A DNA stretch of 64,000 nucleotides from Thermoanaerobaculia bacterium (GTDB taxonomy: Bacteria; Acidobacteriota; Thermoanaerobaculia; Multivoradales; UBA5704), in NCBI GenBank assembly GCA_036271335.1, contig DATBAW010000161.1, forward strand, positions 1,255-65,254, read 5' to 3'. The position numbers and the translations under genes are program-made. Below the pieces are notes generated by a model, which was not told the DNA's origin, did no database searches, and worked only from the letters and a program-made list of their open reading frames with translations. Of the stretch, positions 3,936 through 64,000 are shown one piece after another; the first letter of the stretch is position 1, and every line of letters begins with the position of its first letter.

Positions 3936-3955
3936 CGCCCGACCCGAAGCAGAGT

Positions 3956-6392: not shown

Positions 6393-6405
6393 GGAATCCC
6401 TTCTG

Positions 6406-7998: not shown

Positions 7999-8075
7999 CT
8001 TGCTGCTCTCCCACTTGTGCTCCAGCGCGTCGATCCAGCCGCGCGGGATGATCTTTAGAAACCGGCATGTCAAGG

Positions 8076-8098: not shown

Positions 8099-8109
8099 TA
8101 CGGGTGATC

Positions 8110-10170
8110 TCACCAGACGCGGCAGGCGTTCTCGCGCACCATCGGCGACTTGGCGGGACAGTTGAAGGCTTTCTGGAATTCGGGCATGTTCGAGACGACG
8201 CCGTTCACCCGGTAGCGGCCGGGCGAGTGGGGATCGGTCTGGGCGCGCACCTTCGCGCTCTGGTCGGTGATGCTCTCGCACCAGATCTCCCCCCAGCCCA
8301 GGAAGAAGCGCTGCTCGGGGGTGAAGCCGTCCCGCGGCGCCTCCGGCGAGCCCTTGAGGGTGTCCTCGAGCGCCATCAGGGCGATGCGCACGCCGCCGTT
8401 GTCGGCGGAGTTCTCGCCGAGGGTGAGGCGGCCGTTCAGATGCACCTCACCGCCGGCGACGGTGAACCCCGAGTATTCGTCGGCGAGGCAGGAGGCGCGC
8501 TTCTCGAACTCCTTGCCGTCCGCCTCCGTCCACCAGTCGGCGAGGTTCCCCTTGGCATCGAACTTCCGCCCCTGATCGTCGAAGCCGTGGGTCAGCTCGT
8601 GACCGATGGCGGCGCCGATCGCGCCGAAGTTCACGGCATCGTCCATCGACTTGTCGAAGAAGGGAGGCTGCAGGATGCCGGCCGGGAAGTTGACGTTGTT
8701 CTCGTACGGGTTGTAGCCCGCGTTCACCGTCGGAGGCGTCATTCCCCACTCCGAGGTATCGACCTTGCGGCCGATCTTCGCACGGTCGCGCGTTGCTTCG
8801 AACTCCGAGGTGCGCTCGCTGTTGCCGAGGGCGTCGCCGCGCACGATCTTCACCGGGGAGTAATCCCGCCAGTGATCGGGATAGCCGATCTTGTTGGCGA
8901 TGGCGACGCGCTTCTCGAGGGCCCGCTTCTTGGTCTCGTCCGTCATCCAGGAGAGGTCGCGGATGTCGCGGTCGAGCGCGCTCTCGAGCGCGACCACCAT
9001 CTTCGACATGCGCTCCTTCCCCTCGGCCCCGAAGTTGGTCTCGACGTAGCGCTGGCCCAGGGCCTCGCCGAGCTCCCGGTCGGTGAATTCGACGCAGCGC
9101 TTCCAGCGCGGCCGGAGCTCCTTGGTGCCGTTGAGGGTCTTGTCGTAGAAATTGAAGTTCTCGTTGACGAAGGCCGCGGGGAGCAGCGGCGCGGCGTCGC
9201 GGACCGTCTGCCAGCGCAGGTAGGCCTTCCAGTCGTCGAGGCTGTGCGCGGCGAGGAGCTGGTCCATCCCCTTGAAGAAATCCGGCCAGGCGACGTTGAG
9301 ATCGGCGAAGGCGGGAGCGCCGCTGGCCTTGAAGAAAGCGGCCCAGTCGAAATCGGGCGCCAGCGCGGCGAGCTCCTTGGGGGTCAGCTGGTGATCGAGA
9401 TTCGCGGGATCCCGCCGCTTGACGCGGTCGAGCGAGACCTTGGCGAGGCCGGTCTCGATGTCGAGCACGGTCTGGGCGTCCCGGGCCGAGGCTTCCTTGG
9501 GCTCGCCCATCAGCTCGAACATCTTCTGGACGTGGAGAGGGAACTGCTTGCGCACGTCGGCGAACCGCGCCTCGTCCTGGAGGTAGTAGTCGCGGTCGGG
9601 CAGCGAGAGCCCCCCCTGGTCGAGCACCGCCTTGTCGACGCTGGCATCCTTGAAGCCGGGCTGGGCACCGAAACGGAAGAGGGCGGAGACGCCATCCGCC
9701 TGCGCGCGGGCGAGGACCGGCGCGATGTCGCGCTTCGATTTCATGCCGGCGATCCGGTCGAGCTGGGGCTTGAGCGGAGCGAGCCCCTTCGCCTCGATGG
9801 CGGCTTCATCCATGCAGCTCGCGTAGAAGTCGCCGATCTTCTGATCGATCGGCGAGCGCTTCGGATCGTCCTTGGCGGCCGCTTGCAGCAGATCCCGGAG
9901 CTCGTACTGGTTGCGCTCCGACAGCTCGGAGAGGCGGCCCCAGCGGGAGCGATCGGGCGGCACCGGGTTCTTGGCGATCCAGGGGCCACAGGTGAACTGA
10001 TAGAAGTCGTCGCAGGGATTCACCGAGCGGTCGAGCGCCGTGGCGTCGAAGTGCGGCAGGGCCTTGGGCATGTCCGGGGCGGCGGGAGCCGGACCCTGCG
10101 CGAAGGCGGCCAGGGCAGTTCCCGCGGCGAGCACGGCGGACAGCAGATGAGGGCGGAGGGTATGGGGCAT
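8110..10170 (-). CDS. Secreted M13-family zinc metalloendopeptidase (neprilysin / PepO / endothelin-converting-enzyme-like)
   Basis: True start is the ATG at 10170 (MPHTLRPHLLSAVLAAGTALAAFAQGP..., Sec-type signal peptide), preceded by AGGAGA. The tracked 994-aa ORF (to 11094) is an out-of-frame run-on into the NRPS gene. HELTHGFD (HExxH), GENSADNGG (GENxADxGG) and VNAGYNPYENNVNFPAGILQPPFF (the NAYY-type motif) are M13 hallmarks. 686 aa. Confidence 0.9.
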   Translation of the reverse strand: MPHTLRPHLLSAVLAAGTALAAFAQGPAPAAPDMPKALPHFDATALDRSVNPCDDFYQFTCGPWIAKNPVPPDRSRWGRLSELSERNQYELRDLLQAAAKDDPKRSPIDQKIGDFYASCMDEAAIEAKGLAPLKPQLDRIAGMKSKRDIAPVLARAQADGVSALFRFGAQPGFKDASVDKAVLDQGGLSLPDRDYYLQDEARFADVRKQFPLHVQKMFELMGEPKEASARDAQTVLDIETGLAKVSLDRVKRRDPANLDHQLTPKELAALAPDFDWAAFFKASGAPAFADLNVAWPDFFKGMDQLLAAHSLDDWKAYLRWQTVRDAAPLLPAAFVNENFNFYDKTLNGTKELRPRWKRCVEFTDRELGEALGQRYVETNFGAEGKERMSKMVVALESALDRDIRDLSWMTDETKKRALEKRVAIANKIGYPDHWRDYSPVKIVRGDALGNSERTSEFEATRDRAKIGRKVDTSEWGMTPPTVNAGYNPYENNVNFPAGILQPPFFDKSMDDAVNFGAIGAAIGHELTHGFDDQGRKFDAKGNLADWWTEADGKEFEKRASCLADEYSGFTVAGGEVHLNGRLTLGENSADNGGVRIALMALEDTLKGSPEAPRDGFTPEQRFFLGWGEIWCESITDQSAKVRAQTDPHSPGRYRVNGVVSNMPEFQKAFNCPAKSPMVRENACRVW

Positions 10171-10178
10171 CGGCTCTC

Positions 10179-13100
10179 CTATCGGATGGGAGATAAGGTT
10201 TCGTCGGGGGAGTCTACCTCCAACAGCCCGCGCAGGACGTCGGCCATGACCTCCACGCCCATCGTCAGGATCGTCCGGTGGGAGCCGGGGATCTCGAAGA
10301 TCCGCAGCCGGTCGCCCAGCAGGGCGCCCCAGCCCAGCGTGGGGTCTTCGTTCTCTCCGGTCACGTGGGCGTCGGCGCGGAAGAGGCAGAGCGTGCCGCC
10401 ATAGGGGAGCGACGGGTAGGCGGAGAGGCACCGCCGGTTGGCGCGGAAGCGCTCGAACAGATGGCGCAGGTCGGCCAGACCGAGGCTCTCCGACAGCAGG
10501 CCGGCCCGGCGGCCGAGGTCGAGGGCTATGCTGAGCGCGGCGTCGGTGTCGAGCGTGCCGGCGTCGATGTCGGGGAGCTGGAGGTCTGGCGGGATCTTGA
10601 GGTCGCCGCGGTAGAGCTGCTCCAGAGAGCCGACGAAGATGGTCACCATCTCGGCGTCGGTCAGCTCGGCCTCGCCGGTCCAGCGCGCGGGCGCCGAGGC
10701 GTCGATCACCACCAGGAGCTCGACCGTCTCCCCCTGCGCTTCCAGCTGGCGCGCCATCTCGTAGGCCACGATGCCGCCCATCGACCAGCCGCCGATCCGG
10801 TAGGGGCCCTCGGGCTGCGCCCCGCGGACGGCGGCGACGTAGAGCGTCGACATCTGCACCAGGTCCGAGAGGGGGGGATCGGGTGACTGCAGACCGTAGA
10901 ACGGCTGATCGGCGCCCAGCTGGCGCGCCAGCTCGCGGTAGGCGACCACCTCCCCACCCACCGGGTGGACGCAGAAGAACGGCCGGTGGCCGGGCGCGCC
11001 CCTCTGGAGCGGTACCAGCACGCCGCGCCCGGCCTGGAACTGACCGGCCTCGACGGGATCGACGAAGGGACCGTCCTCCGCCTCCAGCCGCCACACGGCC
11101 GCGGCAAAGCGCTCGCGCACGAAGGCGGCGAGGCCGGCCACGGTGGGATGGTCGAAGATCGCCACCACCTCGACCAGCTCGCGCAGGGCCTCCTGGAGGC
11201 GGTGGACGAAGATGGCGCTGGTGATCGAGGTGCCGCCGAGCTCGAAGAAGTCTTCGCCGACGCCGATCTCGCGGTCGGCCGGCAGCCCCAGGAGGTTGTG
11301 GAAAAGTCCGGCGAGGAATCTCTCCAGCGGGTCGCGCGGCAGGACGCGCTCGGAGGCCGTCGCGGCGCCCGCCTCCGGAGCCGGCAGCGCCCGGCGGTCG
11401 ATCTTGCCGTTCTCCGTCAGCGGCAGGGACTGCAGGAAGACGAAGGCGGCCGGCACCATGTAGTCCGGCAGCCGCTCGGCCAGCGCGCGCCGCAGAAGCG
11501 CCGCGTCGTCGCCGTCCGTCGCGACGTAGGCCACCAGGCGGCGCTCGCCGCCGTGGCCGTCCTCGCGCGCCAGCACCACGGCCTCGCGGACTCCGGCCTG
11601 CGCGGCCAGCACGGCCTCGATCTCCCCCAGCTCGATGCGGAAGCCGCGGACTTTGACTTGGTTGTCGATGCGGCCGAGGTACTCGAGATCGCCGCCGGCC
11701 AGCCGCCGGGCCAGGTCGCCCGAGCGGTAGAGGCGGGCGCCGGACGTGGCGGCGAAGGGGTCGGGGATGAAGCGCTCGGCGGTGAGCTCGGGCCGGCCGA
11801 GATACCCCTGCGCGAGGCCGGCGCCGCCGACGTGCATCTCGCCGGGGACGCCGATCGGCAGTGGCTGGAGACGGCCGTCGAGCAGGTGGACGGCGAGGTC
11901 CGGGATGGGCTCGCCGATCAGGCTGCCGCCGCCGAGGTCCGCCGCCCGCACCGGCCGGTAGGTGACGTGGATGGTGGTCTCGGTGATGCCGTACATGTTG
12001 ATCAGCCGCGGGCTCTCGTCGCCATGGCGGGCGAACCAGGGGGCGAGGCTCGCCGGCTCCAGTGCCTCGCCGCCGAAGACCACGCAGCGCAGGGCGAGGT
12101 CAGGGGGCGCGCCGGCGAGCACGGCCTCCTCCGCCCAGAGGAGCTGGCGGAAAGCGGACGGGGTCTGGTTGAGGACGGTGACCCGCTCGTCGCGCAGCAG
12201 GCGGTAGAAATCTTCCGGCGCGCGGGTCACCCGGAAGGGCACCACCACCAGCCGGCCGCCGTGGAGCAGGGCGCCCCAGATCTCCCACACCGAGAAGTCG
12301 AAGGCGTAGGAGTGGAAGAGGGTCCAGACGTCGTCCGCGCCGAAGCCGAACCAGGGATCGGTCGTGGTGAACAGGCGGTCGACGTTGGCGTGCGTCACCA
12401 CCACCCCCTTCGGCCGGCCCGTCGAGCCCGAGGTGTAGATGACGTAGGCCGGGAGATCCGCATCGGCCGCGGTCTCCAGGCGCTCGTCGCTCCGGAGCTC
12501 GATGGCGTCGCGCTCGGCATCGAGGTGGACGGTGCGGACGGCCGCCGCCGGCAGGTCCGCCGCGTGCTCCCCCACCGTCACCAGCAGCGAGACGCCGCTG
12601 TCCGCCAGGGAGAAGGCGAGGCGCTCGGCCGGGTAGGCGGGATCGAGCGGCACGTAGGCGGCGCCCGCCTTGAGCGTGGCGAGGAGGGCGACGACCATCT
12701 CCACGGAGCGCTCCAGCAGGAGGGCGACGCGGTCGCCCGGCCACACGCCGGCCACCTGGAGGTGGCGGGCGAGCCGGTTGGCGCGGCGGTCGAGCTCGCC
12801 GTAGGTCAACCGCTCCTCTTGCCAGGAGAGCGCCGGGGCCTCGGGCGCGCGGTCCACCTGGGCCTCGAAGCGGCGGTGCAGGGCGAGGCGAGCGGCGGCG
12901 GCGGCGGGAGCCGGGTTCCACTCGGTTAGGAGCTGGTGGCGCTCCGCCGCGGTCAGCAGCGGCAAATCGGCGAGATGCTGCGCCGGCTCGTCGGTCCAGG
13001 CCGCGAGCAGGGTGGTGAAGTGGCCGGCCAGGCGGGCGATGGTGGCGGCGTCGAAGAGGTCGGTATCGTAGAGAAAGACGCCGGCGATCGCGCCGCCCGC

Positions 13101-16100
13101 CTCGAACAGGTTGACCACCAGGTCGAACTTGGCGGTCTCGACGCCGGCGTCGAACGGCGTCAGCGCGAGCCCCGGCAGCTCGAGGGCGCCGCCGCCGGCG
13201 GCCGCCTGGAGCTGGAAGGTCACCCGCAGCAGCGGCGGCCGGTGCGGGTTGCGCGGCAGACCGAGCTCGTCCACCAGCCGCTCGAAGGGAACGTCCTGGT
13301 GCGAGAGCGCGCCGAGCACGGCGTCGCGGCAGCGGGCGAGGAGGACCGGCAGATCGGGGTCTCCCGCCAGGTCGCCGCGCAGGACGAGGGTGTTGACGAA
13401 GAAGCCGATCAGCCCCTCGATCTCGCGGCGCGAGCGGCTGGCGACCGGCATCCCCACCGGCAGCTCGACCGCGCCGGTCTCCCGATGGAGCAGAGCGGCG
13501 AAGGCGGCGAGGAGGGCCATGAACAGGGTGGCATCCCCCTCACGGGCGCGGCGGTTGAGCCGCTCCACGGCCGCGGCCGGCAGGTCCCAGAGGCGGCTGC
13601 CGCCGCGGCCGGAGGGAGCCGGGGGACGCGGGCGGTCGGTGGGGAGCTCGAGCGGCGCGAGGCCGGCGAGCTGACGCCGCCAGTAGGCGAGCTGCTCGTC
13701 CAGCACCGCGCCGCGCAGCCACTCCCGCTGCCAGACGGCGTAGTCGGCGTACTGCACCGGCAGCCCGACGAGCGGCGACGGCCGCCCCTCCACAAGCGCC
13801 GCGTAGAGGCGGGTCAGCTCGGGGACGAACACCGCGGCGAGCGACCAGCCGTCGGCGGCGACGTGGTGGGTGCTCCAGAGCGCCACGTGCTCCTCCGGCG
13901 CCAGTCGCACGAGGAGCGAGCGCAGCAGTGGACCGCGCTCGAGATCGAACGGCCGCGCCCCCTCCGCCGCGACGACCCGCCGCGCTTCATCGACTCGCCG
14001 TTCCTCCGGCAGGCCCGTGAGGTCGACCACCGGCTGCGCCAGCGGCGCCGGCGCCTGGATCTCCTGCACGGCGCCGGTGGCTGTGGTGCGGAAGGTGGTG
14101 CGCAGCGCCTCGTGGCGGCGGCGGATCTCGGTGAGGGCGGCGGCGAGGGCCGCGGCATCCAGCCGGCCAGCGAGCCGCAGCGCGCCCATCATGTTGTAGA
14201 CCGGGCTCTCCGGCTCCAGGAGCTGCAGGAACCAGAGCCGCTCCTGCGCGAAGGAGAGCGGCAGCGGGCGATCGCGCGGGACGGGAACGACCGGCGGCGC
14301 CAGGGCCGCGCCGCCGGCGGCCTGCCTCGCGGCCTCGATCCGCGCCGCCAGGCCGGAGATCGTGGGTGCCTCGAAGACCGTCCGCAGCGGCAGCTCGACG
14401 GCGAAGGCCGCGCGGAGGCGGGAGATCAACTGGGTGGCCAGCAGGGAGTGGCCCCCCAGCTCGAAGAAGTTGTCGTTGACGCCGACGCGGTCGAGGCGCA
14501 GCAGCTCCGCCCAGACTGCGGCGAGCCGCTCCTCCACCGGTCCCCGGGGGAGCGCGGTGGCCGCCACCTGCCGGCGCGGCGCCGGCAGCGCCCGCCGGTC
14601 GAGCTTGCCGTTGGGGGTGAGCGGCAGCGCCGGCAGCTCGACGAAGACGGCCGGCACCATGTAGTCGGGGAGGCGGCCGGCGAGGAGGGAGCGCAGCCGG
14701 GCGGCGAGCTCCGGCGCCGCGCCGGGCGCCGCAACGACGTACGCCGCGAGGTAGCGGTCGCCGCTCTCGTCACGGACCACGACCGCCGCCGCCCGCACCC
14801 CTTCCAGGCGGACGAGAGCGGCCTCGATCTCCGCCGGCTCGACGCGGAATCCGCGGATCTTGATCTGGCGGTCGGCGCGCCCGGCGTATTTCACGTCGCC
14901 GTCCGGCTCGTAGCGCCCGAGGTCGCCCGTGCGGTAGAGGCGGCCGCCGGACGTACCGGGATCGGGGGCGAAGCGCTCGGCCGTGGCGGCGCCGTCGCGC
15001 AGGTAGCCGAGCGCCAGGTATGGCGTGCGGATGGCGATCTCGCCCAGCTCGCCGACGCCGGCCGGCCGGCCGGCCGCCCCGAGCACCAGGAGATCCACGC
15101 CGTCGATGCCACGGCCCAGCGGGACCTGGGAGGCGACCTCCTCCCCCACCACTTTCCACCCCATGGCCTGCGGCGTCTCGGTGGCGCCGTAGAAATTGAC
15201 CAGGCGGGCGCGCGGCGCGAGCTGCCGCAGGGCCGCCACGTCGCCGGCGGTCAGCGCATCGCCCCCCGAGCAGACCAGCCGCAGGGCGGCCAGGGGCGAC
15301 GCCTCACCGGTCGCCAGCAGCCGCGCCATCGGCGGCGTCAGATGGCAGACGGTGACCTCCTCGCGGCCGAGCCAGGCCGCGAGCCACCCGGGCTCGGCGA
15401 TCCGCTCCGGCGCCGGCACCCGCAGCTCGCCGCCGACCCAGAGCGGCGCGAAGACGTCGCGCAGCAGCGGGTCGTGCGCCAGGCCGGAGAGCAGGCTGAA
15501 GCGGTCGTCCGCCCCCAGGCCGAAGGTCTGCGCGTGCCAGCCCAGGAAGTGCGACAGGGGCCGGTGGGAGCCCACGATCCCCTTGGGTTCGCCCGTGGAG
15601 CCCGAGGTGAAGGCGATCCAGGCTGGAGCGTCGGGATCGACCGCGACGCAGGGCGCCTCCGGGTCCGCGGGGAGCCCGGGTCCCTCCAGCTCCCAGCCGG
15701 GGACGGCGGCGAGAGCGGCGGCCACCTCGGCAGGGACCTCGGCGGCGCCCGGCACGGCGACCCAGGCGCGGGGGCGGGCCTGCTCGATCACGGCCGCCAG
15801 CCGGGCCGGCGGATAAGCGGGATCGAGGATGACGAAAGCGGCTCCCGCCCGCAGCACGCCGAGCAGGGCCGCCGCCAGGGGAGCGGCCCGGTGTGCCCAG
15901 ACGGCGACCGGCTCGCCGGCGCCGACGCCGGCGGCCAGGAGCCGCCATGCCAGCCGCCCGCTCGCCGCATCGAGATCTCCCCAGGTCCAGGCACCGACGG
16001 CGTCGGTGGCCGCCGGGCGGCCGGGGTGCCGGCGGGCGTGAGCGAGGAAGCGCTCGTGGATGCTCTCCTCCCAGACCGGGGGGAGCGGCCGGGCGGGATC

Positions 16101-19100
16101 GGGAAGGATCCTGGCGGCCTCTGCGGTCACCAGGGAGATCGCCGCGATCCGTCCGTCCGGGTCCGCGGCGATGCTCTCCAGCACTGCCCGGTACTGCCGC
16201 AGCAGCTCCGCCATGCGTGGAGGATCGAACAGGTCGGCGTTGTAGACCAGAGTGCCCTCGATCTTCCCTCCCTCCTCGGCGACGTAGAGGGTGAGGTCGA
16301 ACTTCGACTCCGGCGCCGGCGCCGGCCCCCACTCGATCTCCAGGTCCGGCAGACGCTCCCCTTCAGGAGGGAAATTCAGCATGTTAAAGAAGACCTGGAA
16401 CAGCGGCGTACGCGACAGGTCCCGCTCCGGCTTCAGCTCGGCCAGCAGGGCCTCGAAGGGGACGTCCTGGTGCTCGTAGGAGCCGAGCGCCGTCTCGCGG
16501 ACCCGGGCGAGCAGCTCGCGGAAGGTCGGGTTGCCTGAGAGATCGGTGCGCAGGGCCAGCGTGTTGAGGAAGAAGCCGATCAGCCCCTCGGTCTCGGCGT
16601 CGCGGCGCCCGGCAACCGGTGAGCCCACCACGATCTCCCCTTGGCCGGCGAGGCGCGAGAGCAGGGCCTTGAACGCGGCGAGCAGAGTCATGAACGGGCT
16701 CGCTCCCCCCTCCCTCGACAGACGCCGGAGCGCGCCCGTCGTCGCCTCCGGAAGAGAGAAGTCGAGACTGCCGCCGCGGAACGTCTGGACGGCCGGGCGC
16801 GGGCGGTCGGTGGGCAGGTCGAGCGGCGGCAGCTCGCCGCCGAGCTTGCCGCGCCAGTAGGCGAGCTGCGCCTCCAGGGCATCGCCGGTCAGCCAGTCGC
16901 GCTGCCAGCGGGCGAAGTCTCCATACTGGATCGGCAGCGGCGGCAGCGGCGAGGGCCGGCCGGCGAGAAAGGCGCCGTAGAGGGCGATCAGCTCGCGGTT
17001 CATCACCCCGTTGGACCAGCCGTCCGAAACGATGTGGTGGACGTCGAGCAGGAAGAGGTGGAGGTCCGGCGCGAGGCGCAGCAGCGAGGTGCGTACCAGC
17101 GGCCCGGTCTCCAGGTTGAACGGGGCCGTCAGGGAACCGAGCGCCACGCGGCCGGCCTCGGCCTCGCGGATCACCGTCGCCAGCGCCGAGAGATCGACCA
17201 CCGGCAGTGGGACCCACAGGCTGGGGAGCGTCGGCTGGACCGGCCGGCCATCGATCTCGACGAACGTGGCGCGCAGGGCCTCGTGCCGGTCGACGATGGC
17301 GTTGACCGCCCGCTCCAGGGCGCGCGGGTCCAGACGCCCCCGCAGGCGCAGGGACGAGCCCATGTTGAACGCGATATTGCCCGGTTCCATGCGGTCGAGG
17401 AACCAGAGGCGCTCCTGGCCGAAGGAGAGCGGCGCGGGCTCTCCCGCCGGCCGCGGCCGCAGCGGCGGCGGTCCGGCCGCGACCAGGGGGGCTCCGGCGC
17501 GCTCCGCCGCCAGCGCCTGCTCGATCCAGGCCGCCAGCACGGAGACCCTGGGGGACTCGAAGACGGCGCGCAAGGGGATCTCGACGCCGCAGCTCTCGCG
17601 GACGCGGGCGACCAGCTGGGTGGCCAGCAACGAATGGCCGCCGAGCTCGAAGAAATCGTCGTCGCGCCCCACCTGCTCGACCCCCAGCACTTCCCGCCAG
17701 AGCGTCGCCATCGCCTCCTCGGCGGCGGTTCGCGGCGGCTCCCCGGCGCCCCCGGCGCGCTGGAGGTCGGGCGCCGGCAGCGCCGCGCGGTCCACCTTGC
17801 CGTTCGGGGTCTGCGGCAGGGCGTCGAGGGCGACGAAGTAGGACGGCACCATGTAATCCGGCAGCTCGGCCTGAAGGGCGCGCCGCACCGCCGGCACCAG
17901 GAGCCGTTCCCGCTTGCCACGCAGGGGCTCGTTGGCGTAGGCGCTCCACGGCAGCGGCTCCCCTGCGCCCTCGACCGCGGTCTCAGCCTCCCCGCGGGCG
18001 ATCTGTCCGGCGATCTCCCGCCGCAGCTCGCCGACGGTCCAGCCCGCAGCCTCGGCGACCGGCAGGAGCGCGAGCGCCGCTGATTCCTCGGCGAGGCGGG
18101 TACGCATGGCCGGCGTCAGAGGACCCCGGATCGCTCCCGGCAGAGCGGGCACGGTTCCGTCGCCACCGACGAGCAGGACGGCGTCGTAGCGGAAGCGGGT
18201 CAGCTCGTTGGTGCGGTCCCCCGGCTTGGGAAGAAGCAGGGCGCCGCTGACCTCGGGCAGTGCCGCCGCCAGGGCGGGGAAGAGGGCCGGTGAGAGCAGC
18301 AGCTCCTCCTCGTCGCGGACCCGCCGCTCGACCCGCCGGCGCAACGCCGCGGCGCTCCCCGCGTCGGGCGAGCGAAACAGCTCGACAGAGGCGTGGAGGG
18401 CGTCGAGCAGCTCGAGGTTGCGCACGTCGCCGACGAACACCGCCCCACCCGGCCGCACCGCCCGCACGGCCCCCTCCAGCACGCGCAGCAGGTAGTGGAC
18501 GTCGGGGAAATACTGGACGATCGAGTTGAGGACGACCAGATCGAAGCTCCCCGGCTCGACGCCCGTCCAGTCGTCCGCCGTGGCCTGCACCAGCTCCACC
18601 TGCGGCAGGTCGAGGCCGGCGGCAGCGATCCGGTGGCGTAGGTTGTCGAGGACGACGCCCGAGAAGTCGACCGCCCGGTAGCGCTCGGTGTGCGGCGCCA
18701 CGCGGAAGAGCAGGAGGCCGGTGCCGCACCCCACCTCGACGACACGGCGGGGGTCGAGCGCCAGGATGCGCTCGACCGTCGAATCCACCCACTCGCGCAT
18801 CTCCACGGCGGGGATCGGCTGGCCCGTGTAGGTGCTGTTCCATCCCTCGATGTCGAAGGTGGGGTCCGCCGCCTCGCTCCTGCCGTAGGTCTCGTCGTAG
18901 AGGGTCTGCCAGTGGGCGACGTAATCGGAGATCTCGGCCGAGCCGGCGGCCTCCGCCGCCTCGGCGCCGGAGCGCCAGACGACCCACGCCGCGAGCTGCG
19001 GGCCGGCGGCCAGACCCTCGACCAGATCGACGGCGGCCTCGCGCACGGCAGGGTGGCGCAGCAGGGCACCCTCGATCTCTCCAAGCTCGATCCGGAAACC

Positions 19101-22100
19101 CCGCACCTTGACCTGGGAGTCGACGCGGCCGAGGAAGTCGAGGTTGCCGTCCGCCAGGAAGCGGACGAGATCGCCGGTTCGATACAGGCGCTCGCCATCG
19201 CCTGCGAAGGGGTCGGGGATGAAGCGCTCGGCGGTGAGATCCGCGCCGTTCAGATAACCGCGGGCAAGGCCGGCACCCCCGAGCAGAAGCTCGCCCGGAG
19301 TGCCGATCGGAACCGGCGCGAGCCGCGGGTCGACCACGTGGACGCGCAGCCCGGTGATCGGCCGGCCGATCACCGGCGGGCGCGGCAGCCGCTCGTCCGG
19401 CGGCGCGACCAGGGCGAAGGTCGCCACCACGCTGGACTCCGTCGGCCCGTAGTGGTTGACGACGGCAAACGGCAGCGCGCCGCGCGGGACGCGCTGCAAC
19501 CGGTCACCGCCGGTGAGCAGGGCGCGCAGCCGGATCTCCGGCGGCAGCAATCCCGTCTCCGTCCTCTCGAGGACCTGCTCGGCCAGCGGCGTCGGCAGGA
19601 AGCAGAGCGTAATCCCCTCGGCCGCCAGCCAGCCCAGGAGGCGGTCGGGCATCAACCGCACGTCGTCGTCGGGGATGTGCAGGCTGGCACCCGCCGCCAG
19701 GGTGGGCCAGATCTCCCACACCGAGGCGTCGAAGGCCGGCGAGGCGACCAGCGTGGCACGGTCGCGGGAGGTCATGCCGTAAGTCCGCAGGTGCCAGCGC
19801 ACCAGGTTGGCCAGACCCGCGTGCGGCACCTGCACGCCCTTGGGGCGCCCGGTCGACCCGGACGTGTAGATGACGTAGGCGAGGTCCCCGGGGCGCACCG
19901 ACACCGGCGCCAGGAACGGCTCCGCGGCGGACACGGCGTCGAGGTCGAGCCGGTGCACGCCGCCCCCCACCCAGAGGGACGCGCCCGGGCCACGGGCGAG
20001 CAGCACTTCCATGCCGCTCTCGCGGGCCACGAAGGCGAGCCGCTCCCGCGGCGTATCGGGATCGAGCGGCAGGTAGGCGCCGCCGGCCAGCAGGACCGCC
20101 AGGGCGCCGACGACGAGCTCGGGCGACCGCTCGGCGCACAGGCCGACCGGGTGCTCACCAGGCTGCCCGCGGCCCACGCCGAGGCTCCGCAGCTCGCCGG
20201 CGAGACGGGCGGCACGATCGAGCAGCTCGCCATAGGTCAGCGTCCGGCCCCCCGCGACCACGGCCGGCGACGACGGCGAGGCCGCAGCCCTGGCGGCCAC
20301 TTCGCCGGCGATCCCGCCGGTGAGCTCGCCGGCGCCGCCCGACGCCGAGGGCCACTCGTGGAGGAGCTGGTGGCGCTCGGCCGGCAACAGGAGTGGCAGC
20401 TCCGCGAGGGGGAGGCCGGGATCGGCGACCACGCCGCGGAGCAGGAGCTCCAGGTGTGCCGCCAACCGCTGGATGGTGGCGGGGTCGAAGAGGTCGGTGC
20501 TGTAGACGAAAGCCATCGCCACCCCGCCCGCCGTCTCCAGGGCGAACAGCTCGAGGTCGAAGCGCACCGTGGCGATGTCGACCTCGACGGGAGCGACCGT
20601 GAGCCCGGGGAGCTCGGCACCACCGCCGCCAGCGGCGTTCTGCAGGGCGAAGGCGACCTGGAAGAGCGGGTTGAGGGCGAGGTGGCGGTCCGGGCTCAGC
20701 TCCTCCACCAGCCGCTCGAAGGGGAGATCCTGGTGGGCGAAGGCCTCCAGCGTCGACCGCCGGACGCGGGCCAGCAGATCGTCGAAAGTGGGCTCGCCGG
20801 AGAGGTCCCCGCGCATGACCAGGGTGTTGACGAAGAAGCCGATCAGCGGCTCGATCTCCCCCCGGTTGCGGTTGGCGATCGGCGACCCCACCGCCAGGTC
20901 CTCCTGGCCGCTGAGGCGCCAGAGGAGCGCCTGGAAGGCGGCGAGGAGAACCATGAACAGGGTCCCTTCGTGCCGGCGGGCCAGCCGCGACAGCTCACCC
21001 GAAAGCCCGGCGTCGAGCGCCGCGGTCACCCGTGCGCCCCGGTAGGAGGGTGCGGCAGGGCGCGGCCGGTCGGTCCGCAGGTCGATGGTGGCGGGAGCGC
21101 CGGCCAGCCGCTGCCGCCAGTAGGAGAGCTGGCGCTCCAGCTCCTCCGCCACCAGCCAGCCGCGCTGCCAGACCGCGAAGTCGGAGTATTGCAAGGGAAG
21201 ATCGGGGAGCGGCGACGGATGGCCCGCCATGGCGGCGGCGTAGAGCCCGGTGATCTCCCGGACGAGCACGCCCATCGACCAGTCGTCGGAGACGATGTGG
21301 TGCATGGCCAGCAGCAGCACGTGATCGGTCGGCTCCAGGTGCAGTAGCGAGGCGCGCAGGACCGGGCCGCGCTCGAGGTCGAACGGCAGCAGCGAGTCCT
21401 CCAGGGCGAGGCGGCGCGCCTCGGGGAGCCGCCGTTCCGCGGCCAGCGCGGCGAGGTCGACGAGCGGCAGGGTCCAGCGCTCCGCCGGCGCGACGACCTG
21501 CACCGGCCGGCCGTCGCGCTCGCGGAAGGTGGTGCGCAGCGCGCCATGGCGGCGGACCACCTCGCCGAGGACGGCCGCGAGCAGCGCCGGGGAGGCCGCG
21601 CCGCTGATGCGCAGGGCCTGCGGGATGGTGTAGGCCGCATTCCCCGGCTGCAGGCGATCGAGGAACCAGAGCCGCTCCTGGGCGAAGGAGAGCGGCACCG
21701 CCTTGCCCTCCCAGTCGCCGAGCCTGGTGGGGCCCCGGCCGACGAGCGCACCGGTGCCCAGGGCGGGCGCCACGAAGCGGCCCGCCAGCTCCGCGAGGAC
21801 CGGCGCTTCGAAGATCGCCTGCAAGGGGATCTCGACGCCGAGCGCCGTCTTGAGACGGGAGACCAGGCGGGTGGCGGCGAGCGAGTGGCCGCCGAGCGCG
21901 AAGAAATTGTCGTTCCTGCCGACCGTCTCGATGCCGAGGATCTCCTTCCAGATCTGGGCGATCCGCTCCTCGACCGGCGTCTGCGGCGGCTCGGCCTCGC
22001 GCTCCGCCTCGCCCTCCGGCCGCAGCAGCTCCAGGGCGCGGCGGTCCACCTTGCCATTCGGCGTCAGCGGCAACCGGGAGAGGACGGAGAACGCCGCCGG

Positions 22101-25100
22101 GATCAGATGGGCCGGCAGCCGCGCCGCCAGGAACGCGCGCAGCTCGTCCGGCGCCGGCGCGGCCGCCCCCTCCGCGGCGACGACGCAGGCGAGCAGCGCA
22201 TTGCCGGCGGGGGTCCGGCGCGCCACCACCACGGCGTCGCGGAGCTCCGGATGGGTGGCGAGGACGGCCTCGATCTCCCCCGGCTCGACGCGGAAGCCGC
22301 GGACCTTGATCTGCTGGTCGGCGCGGCCGCCGAATTGCAGCTCGCCGCCGGCCGTCCAGCGGACGAGGTCGCCGGTGCGATAGACCCTTCCCCCTGCCTC
22401 GCCGCTCCAGACATCAGGGAGGAAGCGCTCCGCCGTCAGGGCGGTCCGCCCGAGATAGCCGCGAGCGACGCCGGCGCCGCCGATCAGCAGCTCCCCCCAG
22501 ACGCCGGCCGGCACCAGGGCGAGATCGCGGTCGACGACGTGGAGCCGGGTGCCGGCGAGGGGCCGGCCCAGGGAGACCGGATCCCCCTCGCCCCACCCCT
22601 CGAGGTCGGCGAAGGTCGAGGAGACCGTCGTCTCCGTCGGCCCGTAGGCATTCAGCAGCCGGACCCTGCCGCCGGTGCCGCGGAGCCAGTCGGCGAGACG
22701 GCGGGGCTGCACCTCCTCGCCGCCGATCACCGCCAGACGGACCGCCGGCGGCAGCGTGGAGCTCCCCTCCCCCAGCGCCGCCGCGAGCTCGTGCCAGAAG
22801 GCCGTCGGCAGGCCGAGCACCGTGATCTCCTGGCGCTCCACCTCGGCCACGAAGGTGGGGATCGAGCCGGCCGCCGCGTCCGAGCGCAGAGCCAGGAGCG
22901 ACCCGACGGCGAGCGGGCACCAGATCTCGTCGACGCTGGTGTCGAAGCCCAGCGCGGAGAACTGGAGCGCGCGGTCCTCCGGCCTCAGGGCGTACATCCC
23001 GACCACCGCCTGCACGTAGGTGGAGATCGCGCGGTGGGATACCGCCACCCCCTTCGGCCGTCCGGTCGAGCCCGAGGTGTAGATGACATAGGCGGTCGCC
23101 AGGGGATCGAGCGCGAGATCGAGCGTGCCCTCCGGGCCCTCCATGCCGGCGCCGTCGAGCGCGACGAAGCGCGCCGGGCTGGCTGGCAGGCGGCTGCGCA
23201 GCCGCTCCTGTGCCAGCAGCACCAGGGCTCCGGAGTCCTCCAGCAGCAGGGAAATCCGTTCGGCGGGGTACTCCGGATCGACCGGCACGTAGGCGCCTCC
23301 CGCCTTGAGGATGGCGAGCATGCCGACCACGAGGTCGGCGGAGCGGCCGGCGGCGATCGCCACCCGCACCTCGGGACCGACGCCGGCGCTCCGCAGCCGG
23401 CGCGCCAGGCGGCTGGCGCGGCGGTCGAGCTCGCCGTAGGTCAGGCTCACTCCCGCGGCATCGAGCAGCGCCTGGGCCGTCGGCGCGGCGGCCGCGCGCT
23501 CCTCGACGAGCCGGTGCAGAGGGACGTCCCACGACCCGGAGCTCCGCGTGTCGTTCCACTCCCAGAGCAGCTGCGCCCGCTCCGGCGCGGCGAGGAGAGG
23601 CAGCGCGGAGAGCGGCCTGCCAGCGACGTCCATGACCTCCTGAAAGAGGATCTCCAGCCGGCCGGCCAGCCGCCGGATGGTCGCCGGATCGAACAGGTCC
23701 GCGTTGTAGAGCACCAGGGCATGGAGGGCATCCGCCCCCTCCATGAAGCTCAGCTCGAGGTCGAAGGGTGTGCTCGCCGTCCCGGAATCGACCGGCTCCA
23801 GGGAGAGGCCGGGGAGATCCAGCCGCCCCAGCGGCGCGTTCTGCAGGATGCAGAGGACCTGGAAGAGCGGGGTCACCGCCAGCCGGCGCTCCGGCTGCAG
23901 CTCCTCGACCAGACGCTCGAAGGGGAGATCCTGGTGAGCATAGGCCTCCAGGGTCGTCTGCCGCGCTTGCGCCAGCACCTCGCGGAAGGAGGGGTCCCCC
24001 GCGAGATCGCCGCGCAGCACCAGGGTATTGACGAAAAAGCCGATCAGCGGCTCGATCTCGCCCCGGTTGCGGTTGGCGACCGGCGAGCCGATGGTGATGT
24101 CCGTCTGGCCACTGAGGCGCCGCAGGAGCGCCTGGAGGGCCGCCAGCAGCACCATGAACAGGCTCGCTTCGTGGGTTTGAGCGAAGCGCGGCAGCCGCCG
24201 CGAGAGCTCGCCACCGAAGGTGACCAGCAGCCTCCCGGCGTTACGGCTCGGCGCCGACGGACGGGGCCGGTCGGTGGGCAGCTCGAGCACGGCCGGCGAG
24301 CCGGCCAGCCGCAGCCGCCAGTAAGCGAGCTGCCGCTCCAGCGCCTCGCCCTGGAACCAGCTCCGTTGCCAGACCGCGAAGTCGGCGTACTGGATCAGGA
24401 GCTCCGGCAGCGGCGACGGGGCGCCGGCCAGGGCGGCGCCATAGAGGGCCGAGATCTCGCGCACCAGCACACCGATCGACCAGCCGTCGGCGACGATGTG
24501 GTGGATGTCGAGGAGCAGGATGTGCTCCGCCGGCGCCAGGCGGACCAGCGTGGGGCGGAAGAGCGGCCCTCGCTCGAGGTCAAAAGGGCGGAGAGCCGTC
24601 GCGCGGGCCAGCTCCTGGGCCGCCGCCTCCCGGCGCTCCACCGGCAGGCCGGCGAGGTCGACCGTGGGGAGCCGCAGGAAGGAGGGGGCCGCGATGACCT
24701 GGACCGGCTCGCCCTCTCGCTCGTCGAACGTCGTGCGCAAGGCCTCGTGACGGCGCACCACCTCCGCCAGAACCGCCCGCAGGACGGCCGGCGACAGCGC
24801 GCCGGTCAGACGCAGGGCCAGGGGCAGAATGTAGGTGGCGCTGTCCGGCTCCAGGCGGTCGAAGAACCAGAGGCGGGTCTGGGCGAAGGAGAGGGGGGCC
24901 ACCGCCAGGCCCAGCCGCGCCATCGCCAGCGGCGCGGCGGTCTCCTGCTTCGCCGCGTCCGCCTGACGGGCGAAATCGGCGAGCCCGGAGGCCTCGAACA
25001 GGGTGCGCACGGGGAGGTCGAGACCGAGGCGGCTGCGGACGCGGGAGAGGATCTGCACCGCCATCAGCGAGTGGCCGCCGAGCTCGAAGAAATCGTCCCG

Positions 25101-43905: not shown

Positions 43906-45386
43906 GCGGCCTCCGGGAACGACGCGAGCGAAGGGAGCTGCGACAGCCGCACCTCGGGGCTGGCGACGACGCAGTCGACGATCCGGCGGAACAGGCCGAG
44001 CCAGCGCTCGACGGTCGCGCGGTCGAGAATGTCGGCGTTGAACTCCACGGGTCCGGTGAAACCCAGGTCGTCGTAGTCATAGAGGCCGAACATCAGGTCC
44101 CACCGCGAGTTGCCGTCGAAGAGCGGCACCGCCTCCGAGTCGACGTCCTCGCCGCCGCCGTGGCTCTGGCCAGCGAGGACGAGGAGCAGCACCTGCACCA
44201 CCGGATTGCGGGCCGGATCGGGCTCCGGCTCCAGGACGTCGACCAGCTTGTCGAACGGCATGTTCTGGTGGGTATAGGCAGCGAGAGAGGACCTCTTCAC
44301 TCGGGCCAGCAATTCGCGGAACGTCGGATCGCCGCCAAGATCGACGGCGAACGGTACCTGGGTCAGAAACTGCCCCAGCATCGGCTCCAATTCCGGCCGC
44401 GGACGATTGGCGCTGTTCGAGCCGACGACCAGCTTTTCGCGGCCGGTGAGGCGGAAGAGCAGCGCGTCGACGACGGCGAGCAGGGCCATGAAGGTCGTCA
44501 CCCCCTCGCGCCGGGCGAGGGCCCGCAGACGGTGCGCGGGCTCGGGGCCGGAGCTGAAGGGGATCATGCCGCCGCGCTGGCTCTGCGCGGGCGGGCGGAT
44601 GCGATCACCGGGAAGATCGAGCACGAGCGGAAACCCGGCAAGCTCGCGGCGCCAGAACTCCGTGTAGTCGTCGAGCGCCTCGCCGCTCCACCACTCGCGC
44701 TCCCAGACCGCGTAATCGGGGAACTGCAGCGCCGGCTCGGGGTAGGGGCTCGGAGCGCCGACGCGGGCCGCCTCGTAGAGTCCCATCAGCTCCTGGAAGG
44801 CGATCTGGAACGTGATCCAGTCGGTCGCGATGTGATGCACGGTGAGCAGGCAGAGGTGCTCCAACTCGTCGGTGCGGACGAGAGCGGCGCGCACCAGCGG
44901 CCCGTGCTCGAGGTCGAAGACCGCGCGGGTGCGGTCGAAAAGATCGCGGCGCCCTTCGGTCTCGCGACGCTCCACCGGCAGGGCCGTGAGGTCGATCACG
45001 GCGAAATCGACATCCGCCACGTCGCCGGCCACCCGCTGAACCGGCCGGCCATCGACCACCGGGAAGGTCGCTCGCCAGGCGGCATGGCGGCGGATGATCT
45101 CGCGCAAGGCCGCGATCAGCGCCGGCACCCGGATCTCACCGTGCATGCGGCTGGCGGCGTCGACGTTCCAGGAGACCAGCCCCGGGTTCTCGCGGTGCAT
45201 GCGCCAGAGCCTCTCCTGGTCGATCGCCAGCGGCCAGTCGCCGGCCGCGGTGGGACCGGTGACCCGGGGGACCGCCGGCGGCAGGAGGAGCTTGGCGGCC
45301 GCGCTCTCTTGCTGCCGGCGACGCAGCGCCTCGAACAGGGCGCGCTGCTCCGGAGTGAGCGCCGAGAGGCGCTCGGTGACGCTCAA
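43902..45386 (-). CDS. Free-standing condensation (C) domain protein, 494 aa, no A or T domain
   Basis: Start assigned to TTG at 45384-45386 (TTGA overlap with the PKS stop; GGGAG 7 nt upstream). With this start the N-terminus (L/M)[24 protein letters not shown] aligns with the N-termini of NRPS-D ([25 protein letters not shown]) and NRPS-E ([25 protein letters not shown]). The tracked 700-aa ORF (to 46004) is a run-on overlapping the PKS. Active-site motif VHHIATDW at 44817-44840. The stop overlaps the NRPS-D ATG (ATGA 43902-43905). Confidence 0.85.
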   Translation of the reverse strand: MSVTERLSALTPEQRALFEALRRRQQESAAAKLLLPPAVPRVTGPTAAGDWPLAIDQERLWRMHRENPGLVSWNVDAASRMHGEIRVPALIAALREIIRRHAAWRATFPVVDGRPVQRVAGDVADVDFAVIDLTALPVERRETEGRRDLFDRTRAVFDLEHGPLVRAALVRTDELEHLCLLTVHHIATDWITFQIAFQELMGLYEAARVGAPSPYPEPALQFPDYAVWEREWWSGEALDDYTEFWRRELAGFPLVLDLPGDRIRPPAQSQRGGMIPFSSGPEPAHRLRALARREGVTTFMALLAVVDALLFRLTGREKLVVGSNSANRPRPELEPMLGQFLTQVPFAVDLGGDPTFRELLARVKRSSLAAYTHQNMPFDKLVDVLEPEPDPARNPVVQVLLLVLAGQSHGGGEDVDSEAVPLFDGNSRWDLMFGLYDYDDLGFTGPVEFNADILDRATVERWLGLFRRIVDCVVASPEVRLSQLPSLASFPEAA

Positions 45387-48300: not shown

Positions 48301-50087
48301 GCATGGCGCGCAGATCGGTCTTCCGCTCGGCCCCCGACTCGCCCGCAGGGCGCGGCGCCGCCGAAAGCAGGAGCTCGCGGACGTCGGCTCCCAGGTGCGC
48401 CCGCAGGATCTCCGCGCAGCGGTCCACCTCGATCGCGAACGCCGGCTCGGCATCGTAGAGCTCGCGCCCCATGTCCACATAGTGGTCGCCGAGACCGGGA
48501 AAGAGGAAGACCACCGGCCGCTGGCCGCCACCGGAGACGCCGGTGACGCCGCGCCCGTCCCGCAGCGAAGCGACGGCGTCCGCGACGTCTCTGCAGACCA
48601 GGGCCCGGCGGTGGCTGAACGCCTTGCGTCCCACCTGCAAGGTAAACGCGGCGTCGGCCAGATCGAGGTCCCCGGCCTCCAGCCGGCCGGTCAGCCGGTC
48701 CGCCTGCGTGGCGAGCGCCGTCGGCGTGCGCGCCGAGAGGGTCAGCAGCTGCCACGGACGCGACGGACCGGAAGGTTGCTGTGTTGGCGGCTCCTCCAGC
48801 ACGACATGGACGTTGGTGCCGCCGAGACCGAACGAGCTGACTCCCGCGCGGCGGGGAGAGAGGTCCACCGGCCAGGGTGTCGCTGCGGTCGGCACATAGA
48901 AGGGCCCGAAGTCCACCTGCGGATTGGGACGCGCGAAACCGACGCTGGGGGGGATCGTGCCATGGCGCAGCGCCAGGACGGTCTTGATCAATCCGGCCGC
49001 GCCGGCCGCGGCGTTCAGGTGGCCGAGGTTGCTCTTGACCGATCCCAGCGCGCAGGGGCCGCCGCCATGCCCGGCCTGAGTGAAGGCCTGGCGCAGGGCC
49101 GAGACCTCGATCGGATCGCCGAGAGCGGTGGCGCTGCCGTGCCCCTCGACGTACCCGAGGGTGTCCGGCTCGATCCCGGACATGAGCAGGGCCTCGGCAA
49201 TCACCTCGGCCTGCCCCTCGATGCTGGGAGCAGTGAACCCCACCTTGGCCGAGCCGTCGTTGTTGGCCGCCGAACCGAGGATGACGGCGTGGACGGTGTC
49301 CCCCGAAGCCAGGGCGTCCGCCAGACGCTTGAGCACCACGACGCCCGCCCCCGTCCCCGGCACCGAGCCGCCGGCCCCGGCGTCGAAGGACCGGCAGTGG
49401 CCGTCTGGCGAGGAGATGCTCCCCTCCTGGTAGAGGTACCCCTCGGCGACCGGCGCGCTGATCGACACGCCGCCGGCGACCGCGAGATCGGACTCGCCGG
49501 CGAGCAGGCTCTGGCAGGCCATGTGGACGGCCATCAGGGCGGTCGAGCAGGCGGTCTGCACCAGGGTGCTCGGGCCACGCAGGTTCAGCTTGTAGGAGAG
49601 CCGGGTGGCGGCGAAGTCGCGGTCGTTGAGGATCAGCACCTGGAGAGTACCGGCCTTCCGCAGCTCCTCGACGTTCGGCAGCAGGTTCGACAGCAGGTAC
49701 GAGCTGGTACCCGAGCCGACGAACACCGCCGCGCGGGCGCCGCCGCGCTCGGGATCGCAGCCGGCGTCCTCCAGCGCCTCCCAGGCGCACTCGAGCAGCA
49801 CCCGGTGCTGGGGATCCATCAGCTCGGCCTCGCGGGGCGTGAAGCCGAAGAAGGCGGGCTCGAACAGCTCGACGCCCGCGGCCACCCCCTTGGCGCGCAC
49901 GTAGGCGGGATCGCCCACCAGCGCGGGATCGGCTCCCGCCGCGATCAGCTCCTCCGCGCTGAAGAAGGAGATGGACTCGACGCCGTCGCGGAGGTTCCGC
50001 CAGAGCTCGTCGACCGAGCCGGCGCCGGGAAACCGGCCGGACATGCCGACGACGGCGATGCCCTGGGCCGGGGAGGTCTCAATGGAA

Positions 50088-50095
<8 letters not shown>
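45383..50095 (-). CDS. Type I PKS module: KS-AT-KR*(inactive)-carrier (1570 aa)
   Basis: KS: GIAVVGMSGRFPGA, TACSTAL (Cys 49547-49549), EGHGSATALGDPIE, KSNLGHLNAAAG. AT: GYSLGE (Ser 48152-48154) and HAFH (~47846-47866). KR-like region 46000-47330. Carrier [12 protein letters not shown] (Ser 45608-45610). The ATG at 50095 overlaps the NRPS-A stop (ATGACTGA). Confidence 0.95.
45480..45700 (-). other. Carrier domain of the PKS module with a PCP-type GGHSL signature
   Basis: [44 protein letters not shown]; Ser codon 45608-45610. Boundaries approximate. Confidence 0.8.
46000..46615 (-). other. KR catalytic subdomain with degenerate cofactor and catalytic motifs (KR0)
   Basis: The Rossmann motif reads YLITDGVHGAG (46565-46597) instead of the GxGxxG-type LITGGTGxLG. 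The Lys position reads P-A-A-L-G-A (Ala codon 46214-46216). The Tyr/Asn motif reads GQVDIAAAG (Ile codon 46097-46099) instead of GQxxYAAAN. The Ser (MSS) is retained. A psi-KR-like structural subdomain lies upstream (~46620-47330). Confidence 0.7.
47400..48520 (-). other. Acyltransferase (AT) domain, malonyl-type motif
   Basis: VVFLFPGLGDHYVDMG, GYSLGEYVAA (Ser 48152-48154), HAFHTPM (HAFH is associated with malonyl-CoA selection). Boundaries approximate and include the post-AT linker. Confidence 0.8.
48790..50070 (-). other. Ketosynthase (KS) domain, Cys-His-His triad intact
   Basis: Cys in VQTACSTALMAVHMA (49547-49549), His in VEGHGSATALGDP and KSNLGHLNAAAG; ends GGTNVHVVLEE (~48791-48823). 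Confidence 0.85.

Positions 50096-64000
<13,905 letters not shown>

Follow-up and report, generated by a model that had tools for sequence, protein, structure and literature searches.

Hybrid assembly lines that join non-ribosomal peptide synthetase (NRPS) and polyketide synthase (PKS) modules, and are primed by a fatty-acid--AMP ligase (FAAL), are the closest described counterparts of the locus reported here. Single elements of it have precedents elsewhere. Tandem carrier arrays are known from polyketide and fatty acid synthases (PKS/FAS), as in the triple acyl carrier proteins (ACPs) of CurA/JamE and MmpB and in polyunsaturated fatty acid (PUFA) synthases, and a position within the adenylation (A) domain is the usual one for N-methyltransferases. 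ClbP/XcnG and the D-stereospecific resistance peptidases are serine enzymes (S12) that recognise N-acyl-D-Asn or D-residues. In the jamaicamide pathway, the stand-alone condensation-family protein JamQ is the proposed catalyst of N-acyl pyrrolinone ring formation (PMC2799420; PMC13643306). The stretch of DNA analysed here (hereafter the window) comprises 64,000 nucleotides of contig DATBAW010000161.1 from a Thermoanaerobaculia bacterium of family UBA5704, and most of it is taken up by a cluster of six synthetase genes, A to F.

The explanation that accounts best for the locus as a whole, and which we consider probable, is an orphan and probably functional FAAL-primed hybrid NRPS-PKS cluster of uncultured soil Thermoanaerobaculia. 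The cluster is real and intact, about 70 kb in length, and belongs to an uncultured soil acidobacterium. The Thermoanaerobaculia include the order Multivoradales (taxonomy look-up). Some lineages of the class are reported to be exceptionally rich in biosynthetic gene clusters, among them family UBA5704 of this order with more than 3 clusters per Mb (PMC12818350). A search of full-text literature found no characterised non-ribosomal peptide from Thermoanaerobaculia and no characterised cluster with this order of domains. Identity with the source clusters of erutacidin or trigintamicin was considered and rejected, as the paper connects them with neither this lineage nor this architecture.

Domain content and integrity of the synthetase genes

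Domains were called with Pfam on module-sized pieces (E-values 1e-12 to 1e-153). The six genes lie in a row on the minus strand (Table 1), and their domain order is exactly the string that had been proposed in an earlier sequence-only reading of the window. They encode 13 A, 14 condensation (C), one epimerisation (E) and 17 carrier (T) domains. The repeated C-A-T modules contain the NRPS core motifs HHxxxD, A3/A8/A10 and GGxS, both methyltransferases (MTs) are embedded in A domains, where they separate the core from the C-terminal subdomain, and the terminal thioesterase (TE) combines GWSMG with a distal His. The inventory expected for the in-window part, namely 13 A domains, one malonyl PKS module, two A-embedded MTs and a terminal TE, was recovered in full.

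Table 1 Features of the window (positions are those of the 64,000-nucleotide stretch; nt, nucleotides; KS, ketosynthase; AT, acyltransferase; KR, ketoreductase; KR0, inactive KR)
Feature	Position	Strand	Content	Evidence
Gene A	50088..64000, 5' end beyond the window	minus	T of module 1; C-A-T-T-T (module 2); C-A-T (modules 3, 4 and 5)	Pfam
Triple carrier of module 2	59904..60791	minus	three PP-binding stretches, GGHS serine intact in each; T-repeat copies at 59918, 60272 and 60584	Pfam
Gene B	45383..50095	minus	PKS module KS-AT-KR0-T; C-terminal docking-like tail	Pfam, NCBIfam
Degenerate KR of gene B	46016..47320	minus	structural and catalytic subdomains; KR prefix domain	weak Pfam KR match (52 bits)
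Gene C	43902..45386	minus	free-standing condensation protein, 494 amino acids, TTG start	Pfam 4.7e-73
Gene D	36124..43905	minus	C-A-T-E, C-A-T (modules 7, 8)	Pfam
E domain of gene D	39226-40638	minus	HHLVVDGVSW, EGHGRE, RTVGWFT, FNYLG	TIGR01720 1.5e-35
Gene E	28271..36127	minus	C-A-T, C-A(MT)-T (modules 9, 10); MT ~29498-29863	Pfam
Gene F	10179..28274	minus	6031 amino acids; C-A-T, C-A-T, C-A(MT)-T, C-A-T, C-A-T-TE (modules 11-15); MT ~18402-18797; TE ~10182-10982 with GWSMG	Pfam, motifs
Shared N-terminal heads of genes C, D, E and F	45251-45386, 43770-43905, 35992-36127, 28139-28274		~45 residues before the first C domain
M13 (neprilysin/PepO-type) zinc endopeptidase	8110..10170	minus	signal peptide, HELTH	Pfam 6.8e-124 / 1.4e-72
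CmlA-type diiron beta-hydroxylase	6406..8073	minus	CmlA_N, Lactamase_B_2	PF18456 2e-97 (230/232 positions); 4e-13
M28 peptidase	4125..6392	minus	N-terminal membrane anchor; 13 nt past the hydroxylase stop	Pfam 1.1e-43
PMT_2-type glycosyltransferase-like gene	1502-3121	minus
Partial M49 peptidase	27-1373	plus

In gene D, Pfam reports a second Condensation-family stretch between the two C-A-T modules. It is an epimerisation domain, with a TIGR01720 match and the E motifs, and the C domain that follows bears the D-donor-type motif HHILFDGWC, so that the single E domain of the earlier reading is confirmed. Dual C/E domains were rejected, the extended motif HH[I/L]xxxxGD being matched in none of the six proteins.

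The triple carrier claimed for module 2 was likewise found, as three tandem T domains that all retain GGHS and show 61-64% DNA identity to the reference T copy of the repeat family. It also occurs in a close relative (protein P0001, locus L025; see below), where, judged by the aligned lengths, no carrier can be missing. A metagenome scan with the T-T-T region, for which the patterns were generic T-domain words, returned 79 loci, all of them ~50% identical single-T sequences and no family member. Another protein from the European Nucleotide Archive (ENA), P0083, is 53% identical to gene A; in it a T-T didomain comes behind a module with an A domain similar to that of module 1 in the relative, so that tandem carriers are also found in other related soil synthetases, at different positions. 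By analogy with tandem ACPs that work with trans-acting enzymes, the triple carrier may plausibly serve the CmlA-type hydroxylase encoded downstream.

All of the overlaps between the synthetase genes were read directly and lie where the sequence-only reading had placed them. Gene A overlaps gene B by ATGACTGA (50095-50088) and gene B overlaps gene C by TTGA (45386-45383); the overlap is ATGA at C/D (43905-43902), D/E (36127-36124) and E/F (28274-28271). The stop codon of gene F (TAG, 10181-10179) is followed after 8 nt by the ATG of the M13 peptidase gene (10170), again as described earlier. As judged by eye, an AGGA/GGAG-type run resembling a Shine-Dalgarno (SD) sequence lies 8-13 nt 5' of each start. 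The B/C overlap (GTGA or TTGA) is kept in 10 of 12 orthologous loci, and the C/D overlap (ATGA or GTGA) was found in the 10 loci with an intact reading frame for the free-standing C protein. Stop/start overlaps of 4-8 nt are ordinary in high-GC operons and are therefore no distinguishing feature of the locus; translational coupling of genes A to F is only implied by these overlaps and the SD-like motifs. For gene C, the TTG start is supported over a longer GTG open reading frame (ORF) from 46004 because the protein then begins with residues that align with the first residues of the gene D and gene E proteins, and also with those of the orthologues, which start at GTG or TTG.

An assembly artefact, collapse, chimera or frameshift was also considered and rejected. 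The six synthetase ORFs and the M13 ORF have no internal stop. The DNA repeats within the window are those that repeated modules should give, 60-86% identical and with no near-identical copies, and for this reason misassembly is not indicated. Very long antisense ORFs, of up to 3704 amino acids, lie opposite the synthetase genes (e.g. 51288-62402, plus strand); these are a by-product of the G+C content of ~73%.

The PKS module, the free-standing condensation protein and their family

The KS of gene B keeps its Cys/His/His residues (TACST, EGHGS, KSNLGH), the AT is of the malonyl type (GYSLGE and HAFH) and the carrier retains its serine (LGGHS), all of which are conserved in nine family members. 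The AT active site (~48134-48151, residues 644-649 of gene B) reads GYSLGE, the usual form being GHSxG, and all nine family members are alike in this. The dead KR of the earlier reading is confirmed: the NADPH motif TGGxGxLG has become TDGVHGAG, and the catalytic Lys, Tyr and Asn are replaced by Ala, Ile and Gly. These losses are common to all nine sequences (the window and 8 orthologues), with Leu or Val at the Tyr position in the relatives. Comparison of the nine marks this KR0 state as an old and conserved condition. Because the KR is dead, the 3-oxo group of the extended chain should persist.

The orphan C domain that had been noted downstream of the PKS module is indeed a free-standing condensation protein (gene C, hereafter the lone C), with the N-terminal head that it shares with genes D to F and neither a carrier nor a C-terminal tail. 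Orthologues with 58-86% identity were found in 12 species-representative genomes, a lower bound for the spread of the family. All 12 are metagenome-assembled genomes (MAGs) of soil Acidobacteriota/Thermoanaerobaculia; they comprise Danish, Californian and global-catalogue MAGs and include Microflora Danica, the SMAG catalogue and a Hopland MAG. After these, the best matches fall to 34-37% and come from ordinary NRPS C domains in actinomycetes and Nostoc. A search against protein representatives was uninformative on free-standing C proteins, its best 150 matches by summed score all being giant multi-C synthetases.

The block of NRPS module, PKS module and lone C (A5-B-C) is syntenic in all 12 loci. 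In 11 of them the lone C is 73-86% identical to that of the window, compared with 62-84% for the PKS and 41-80% for the flanking modules, and it is the best-conserved of the compared segments in most relatives. Downstream of the lone C, the next gene shows ~52% identity in eight loci, in which it lacks an E domain, and 73-77% in three, in which one is present; the module before the PKS is only ~41% identical in two loci. These comparisons identify KS-AT-KR0-T together with the free-standing C as the conserved core of the family, which evolves by module swapping around it. In L026, the closest relative by its flanking genes (M13 96%, CmlA 98% and M28 90% identical), the last two NRPS modules (L026:2646-9878, aligned with window 10182-17474) are both 72-73% identical to the terminal module of the window, and the penultimate one resembles the last module and not module 14. 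This pattern suggests that modules are quickly replaced or duplicated between near-identical strains. Across L026-L029, identity of the terminal C-A-T-TE module is 70-76%.

The motif of the lone C, HHIATDWITF, departs from HHxxxDGWS in having no canonical Gly-Trp-Ser. Since the protein also has neither carrier nor docking tail, and would be redundant with the first C domain of gene D, it might be catalytically inert, serving as a structural or docking adaptor or persisting as the remnant of a lost module. We consider this unlikely. The two His residues and the Asp have been retained, the motif HH(I/T)(A/V)TDWITF is invariant in 11 orthologues, and the protein is mostly better conserved than its neighbours. 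The lone C forms a clade with the first C domains of genes D and E (48-66% mutual identity, against ~40% to C domains acting in cis), and these replace HHxxxDGWS as well, with HHLVTDWISS in gene D and a further variant in gene E. A hidden Markov model (HMM) built from the C domains of the window found 376 C domains in 1.6 Mb of fetched loci; among these, the form HHxxxD[WFMLY][ILV][ST]F is confined to the N-termini of proteins from this acidobacterial family, and by pattern detection most copies also bear the shared head. The first C domain of gene E, which like that of gene D and their orthologues has this form, must be active because it is the sole C domain between modules 8 and 9, and the variant His motif is therefore compatible with catalysis. 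The Gly is moreover replaced in about one third of the 376 soil NRPS C domains, so that its loss is not diagnostic. On these two grounds, we rejected the variant motif as a sign of inactivity. The closest solved structures to the lone C are the C domains of teixobactin Txo2 and Txo1, which have canonical motifs.

The shared head of ~45 residues precedes the first C domain at the N-termini of genes C, D, E and F (Table 1), and acidic tails that resemble one another, with the pattern '(D/E)L(E/Q)ALL...SP(D/E)E', are found at the C-termini of genes B, D and E. Heads and tails together resemble a docking system that would have little obvious specificity between pairs; the heads of genes C-F gave no match to the TubC_N-type docking domain of Pfam.

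Chain initiation, predicted product and the path of the chain

Gene A runs off the window, in agreement with the earlier placement of the loading end beyond 64000. With its first 1380 residues as query, only one close relative was found, P0001 (90% identity), which lies on a 363-kb ENA nanopore contig (locus L025). The gene calls of this locus break the synthetase at frameshifts, and where they do so two Pfam-less antisense ORFs (L025:4522-7020 and 7153-9993, minus strand) were called as genes. By tblastn, residues 10-315 of gene A match L025:8992-9900 at 83% and residues 301-4622 match the locus at 84-89%. The upstream unit of L025 (4054-6093) has AMP-binding, DIP2-like and PP-binding domains in Pfam, with NF004509 (fatty-acid--AMP ligase, 7.7e-131) as the best non-composite NCBIfam match, and is followed by one C-A-T module (6094-9264). 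Since this 83-89% identical relative has them, we infer that the line of the window also starts with FAAL-T and one C-A-T module just past 64000. The full line would then join an acyl group, five amino acids, a malonate unit and nine amino acids, and the predicted product is a lipopeptide of 14 amino acids and one ketone-bearing malonate unit.

Specificity codes (Stachelhaus) were extracted against the GrsA reference, which reproduced DAWTIAAICK. The residue readings are tentative. We take modules 2 and 8 (both DAFWLGGTFK), 7 (DVFWLGGTFK) and 10 (DALWLGGTFK) to be of the Val type, modules 3 (DFWNIGMVHK) and 15 (DFWNVGMIHK) to select Thr, module 4 (DVQFMAHVAK) to be Pro-like and module 13 (DAWFLGHVVK) to be of the Leu type. 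No residue was assigned to modules 5 (DLYNFAFVWK), 9 (DILHFGLIVK), 11 (DVEFIAEVVK), 12 (DTDGVGAVSK) and 14 (DPRHCGFQAK), nor to module 1 as read from the relative (DVFCNGATYK).

In the mechanism that we propose, the FAAL with its carrier and the C-A-T module beyond 64000 would start a lipopeptide, to which gene A would add four residues, presumably Val (on the triple carrier), Thr, a Pro-like residue and one without assignment. Gene B would extend the peptidyl chain by one malonate, and its dead KR would leave the 3-oxo group, giving an internal 4-amino-3-oxoacyl ('statone-like') unit. The lone C would act in trans, sharing the PKS carrier with the first C domain of gene D. Genes D, E and F would then add nine residues, read as D-Val-like, Val, unassigned, N-Me-Val, unassigned, unassigned, N-Me-Leu, unassigned and Thr, before the terminal TE releases the product, possibly with cyclisation. 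The CmlA-type enzyme probably beta-hydroxylates a carrier-bound residue, and the secreted M13 peptidase would be a conserved companion, probably with a role in processing or immunity.

This model, in which the chain passes along a single line of 15 extension modules, appears likely to us. Of the collinear assembly line claimed earlier, the domain string and the common strand stand as observations, and strict collinearity through the free-standing C is what we infer. On the simplest view, both gene D and the lone C dock on gene B, whose PKS module is expected to be dimeric, and the chain then passes into gene D. Transfer from B to D fits the distribution of the terminal elements, since gene D has the same head as genes E and F, genes B, D and E have tails, and the lone C has none. 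A different course, with two lines, would have the lone C act like JamQ: the 4-acylamino-3-oxoacyl thioester held by the PKS carrier would be cyclised to an N-acyl pyrrolidine-2,4-dione (tetramate/pyrrolinone), a lipopentapeptide would be released, and genes D-F would make a separate nonapeptide. The order of NRPS module, KS-AT-(no active KR)-T and stand-alone C is that of jamaicamide, a retained 3-oxo group is what pyrrolinone chemistry requires, and gene B and the lone C form the conserved core between modules that are swapped on both sides. We nevertheless regard two lines as quite improbable. The lone C would then be expected to perform the last catalytic step, but an NRPS gene with a head follows it in all 12 loci, and in the 10 with an intact frame the two overlap by 4 nt. 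The head of gene D matches the docking-type heads of genes E and F and would be left partnerless if the chain departed at the lone C. Furthermore, the first C domain of gene D is 66% identical to the elongating first C domain of gene E and is unlike a dedicated starter C, and the role of JamQ is itself only a proposal.

Several points weigh against the single FAAL-primed line. Two C domains in a row, the lone C and the first of gene D, exceed what a simple collinear line needs, and, with JamQ as a precedent, a stand-alone C behind a non-reducing PKS module could be a releasing cyclase. FAAL priming rests on the relative L025, the 5' end of gene A being outside the window, and 7 of the 14 A-domain codes are without assignment (6 of 13 in the window and module 1 as read from the relative). 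Four more distant relatives lack CmlA and M28 genes beside M13.

Downstream genes and likeness to known systems

The sequence-only reading had taken every junction as translationally coupled and had described coupled peptidases behind the TE gene. The former is no more than implied by the overlaps and SD-like motifs, and the latter is partly wrong: M13 alone is tightly linked, the gene after it encodes a CmlA-type hydroxylase, and the M28 peptidase comes only after that. The real start of the hydroxylase is probably ATG 7998 rather than the listed TTG, because of the alignment with L026 and the start of the Pfam domain; this leaves ~110 nt after the M13 stop, so that the M13/hydroxylase junction is uncoupled. 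Altogether, three peptidase families (M49, M28 and M13) and a PMT_2-type gene lie within 10 kb downstream of the TE.

Whether the M13 gene belongs to the cluster was approached through its relatives. The window M13 is 96% identical to a protein from a JGI soil metagenome, and no genome identical to the window was found. Among six relatives with 71-96% identity, M13 follows a TE-ending synthetase in five (L026, L027, L028, L029/L030 and L031; L028 is the same genome as L001). In L031 an insertion sequence (IS) element lies between the two: the terminal synthetase region (L031:1-7644) appears fragmented, with a DDE transposase and a DUF559 gene between TE and M13, and represents either a decaying cluster copy or nanopore frameshifts. 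The sixth, L032, has an M13 homologue of 71% identity that is not beside an NRPS. It adjoins tyrosinase, SCO1/SenC, nitroreductase and YcaO/ThiF genes (L032:10149-18091), which may form a different neighbourhood, similar to those of ribosomally synthesised and post-translationally modified peptides (RiPPs).

It is conceivable, if somewhat unlikely in our estimation, that M13 (and M28) are housekeeping neighbours, with the cluster ending at the TE gene and the tight spacing incidental. The homologue in L032 would agree with this, as would the abundance of M13 homologues of 65-96% identity in Thermoanaerobaculia metagenomes (8000 at E<=1e-30, the best 120 listed). In both the window and L028, an M49 peptidase gene in opposite orientation lies ~7-8 kb beyond M13, which hints at a shared chromosomal backbone. 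On the other side, the spacer before M13 is only 8 nt long and contains an SD-like AGGAG. The TE-ending NRPS is always upstream in the five TE-adjacent loci, whereas the genes on the far side of M13 differ in each of them. For this last reason membership of M13 in the cluster is favoured, not conclusively. Among the relatives examined, CmlA and M28 genes occur beside M13 only in L026, where the CmlA orthologue is 98% identical; the CmlA-type enzyme is likely a tailoring enzyme, and the membership of M28 is uncertain. A scan of positions 1-12000 for promoters and terminators gave only weak consensus matches, with no convincing terminator between the TE gene and M13.

A bolder interpretation would connect these elements functionally. 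The KR0-PKS module and the free-standing C would be a dedicated device for installing and passing on a 4-amino-3-oxoacyl residue (a statone-type ketone) inside a long lipopeptide, and the ketone hydrate would mimic the transition state of a peptidase; M13 would be the cognate partner (an immunity enzyme, a resistant copy of the target or a maturase), and the triple carrier would serve the CmlA hydroxylase. We think it very unlikely that all of this applies. If it were true, acidobacterial lipopeptides would follow a functional logic that is new, and a stand-alone C domain would have gained a further role.

Tractable questions of enzymology arise from the lone C, the dead KR and the triple carrier. 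Being widespread in soils and diversified by module swapping, the cluster family also lends itself reasonably well to heterologous expression or to synthetic-bioinformatic work on peptides. The cluster poses no challenge to the current understanding of assembly-line biosynthesis. An architecture that was not recognised, as the sequence-only reading had put it, is unusual in its detail, but there are precedents for tandem carriers, for KR0 and for a stand-alone C after a PKS module. What is new is the host lineage, a cluster with no known product, the conserved combination of KR0-PKS, free-standing C and headed C, and the M13 companion; every single element is already known, and the cluster should work like any modular NRPS-PKS line.

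As in the pathways of ClbP and XcnG, a secreted peptidase is encoded directly after the synthetases and conserved with them, but here it is an M13 zinc endopeptidase, a family for which we know of no documented role of that kind. Prodrug activation of the ClbP/XcnG type was rejected, given the M13 HELTH motif and the lack of an E or dual C/E domain by the first modules. With CmlA of the chloramphenicol pathway, the hydroxylase shares a full-length CmlA_N domain, the metallo-beta-lactamase fold and a location beside an NRPS; here the gene is found in the window and its closest relative and not across the cluster family. The tandem ACP arrays resemble the triple carrier in that two or three nearly identical carriers follow one another, with the phosphopantetheine serine present in every one. 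Those arrays are PKS/FAS carriers that usually serve trans-acting beta-branching enzymes or raise flux, whereas the T domains here follow an NRPS A domain of the Val type.

The jamaicamide terminus (JamO/JamP/JamQ) shares with this locus the order of an amino-acid module, a KS-AT-carrier module without a working KR and a free-standing condensation-family protein. However, jamQ is transcribed divergently and gene C lies within the operon, where it is not terminal: nine NRPS modules and a TE follow, with overlapping codons. The closest overall resemblance is to FAAL-primed hybrid NRPS-PKS lipopeptide lines, with which the cluster has in common C-A-T modules, one KS-AT-KR-T module, A-embedded MTs, an E domain followed by a D-donor C, a terminal TE, a single coding strand with overlapping junctions and, in its close relative, FAAL-T loading. 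It differs from the known members of this group in the triple carrier within an NRPS module, the conserved dead KR, the free-standing C directly before another C domain and its uncultured acidobacterial host.

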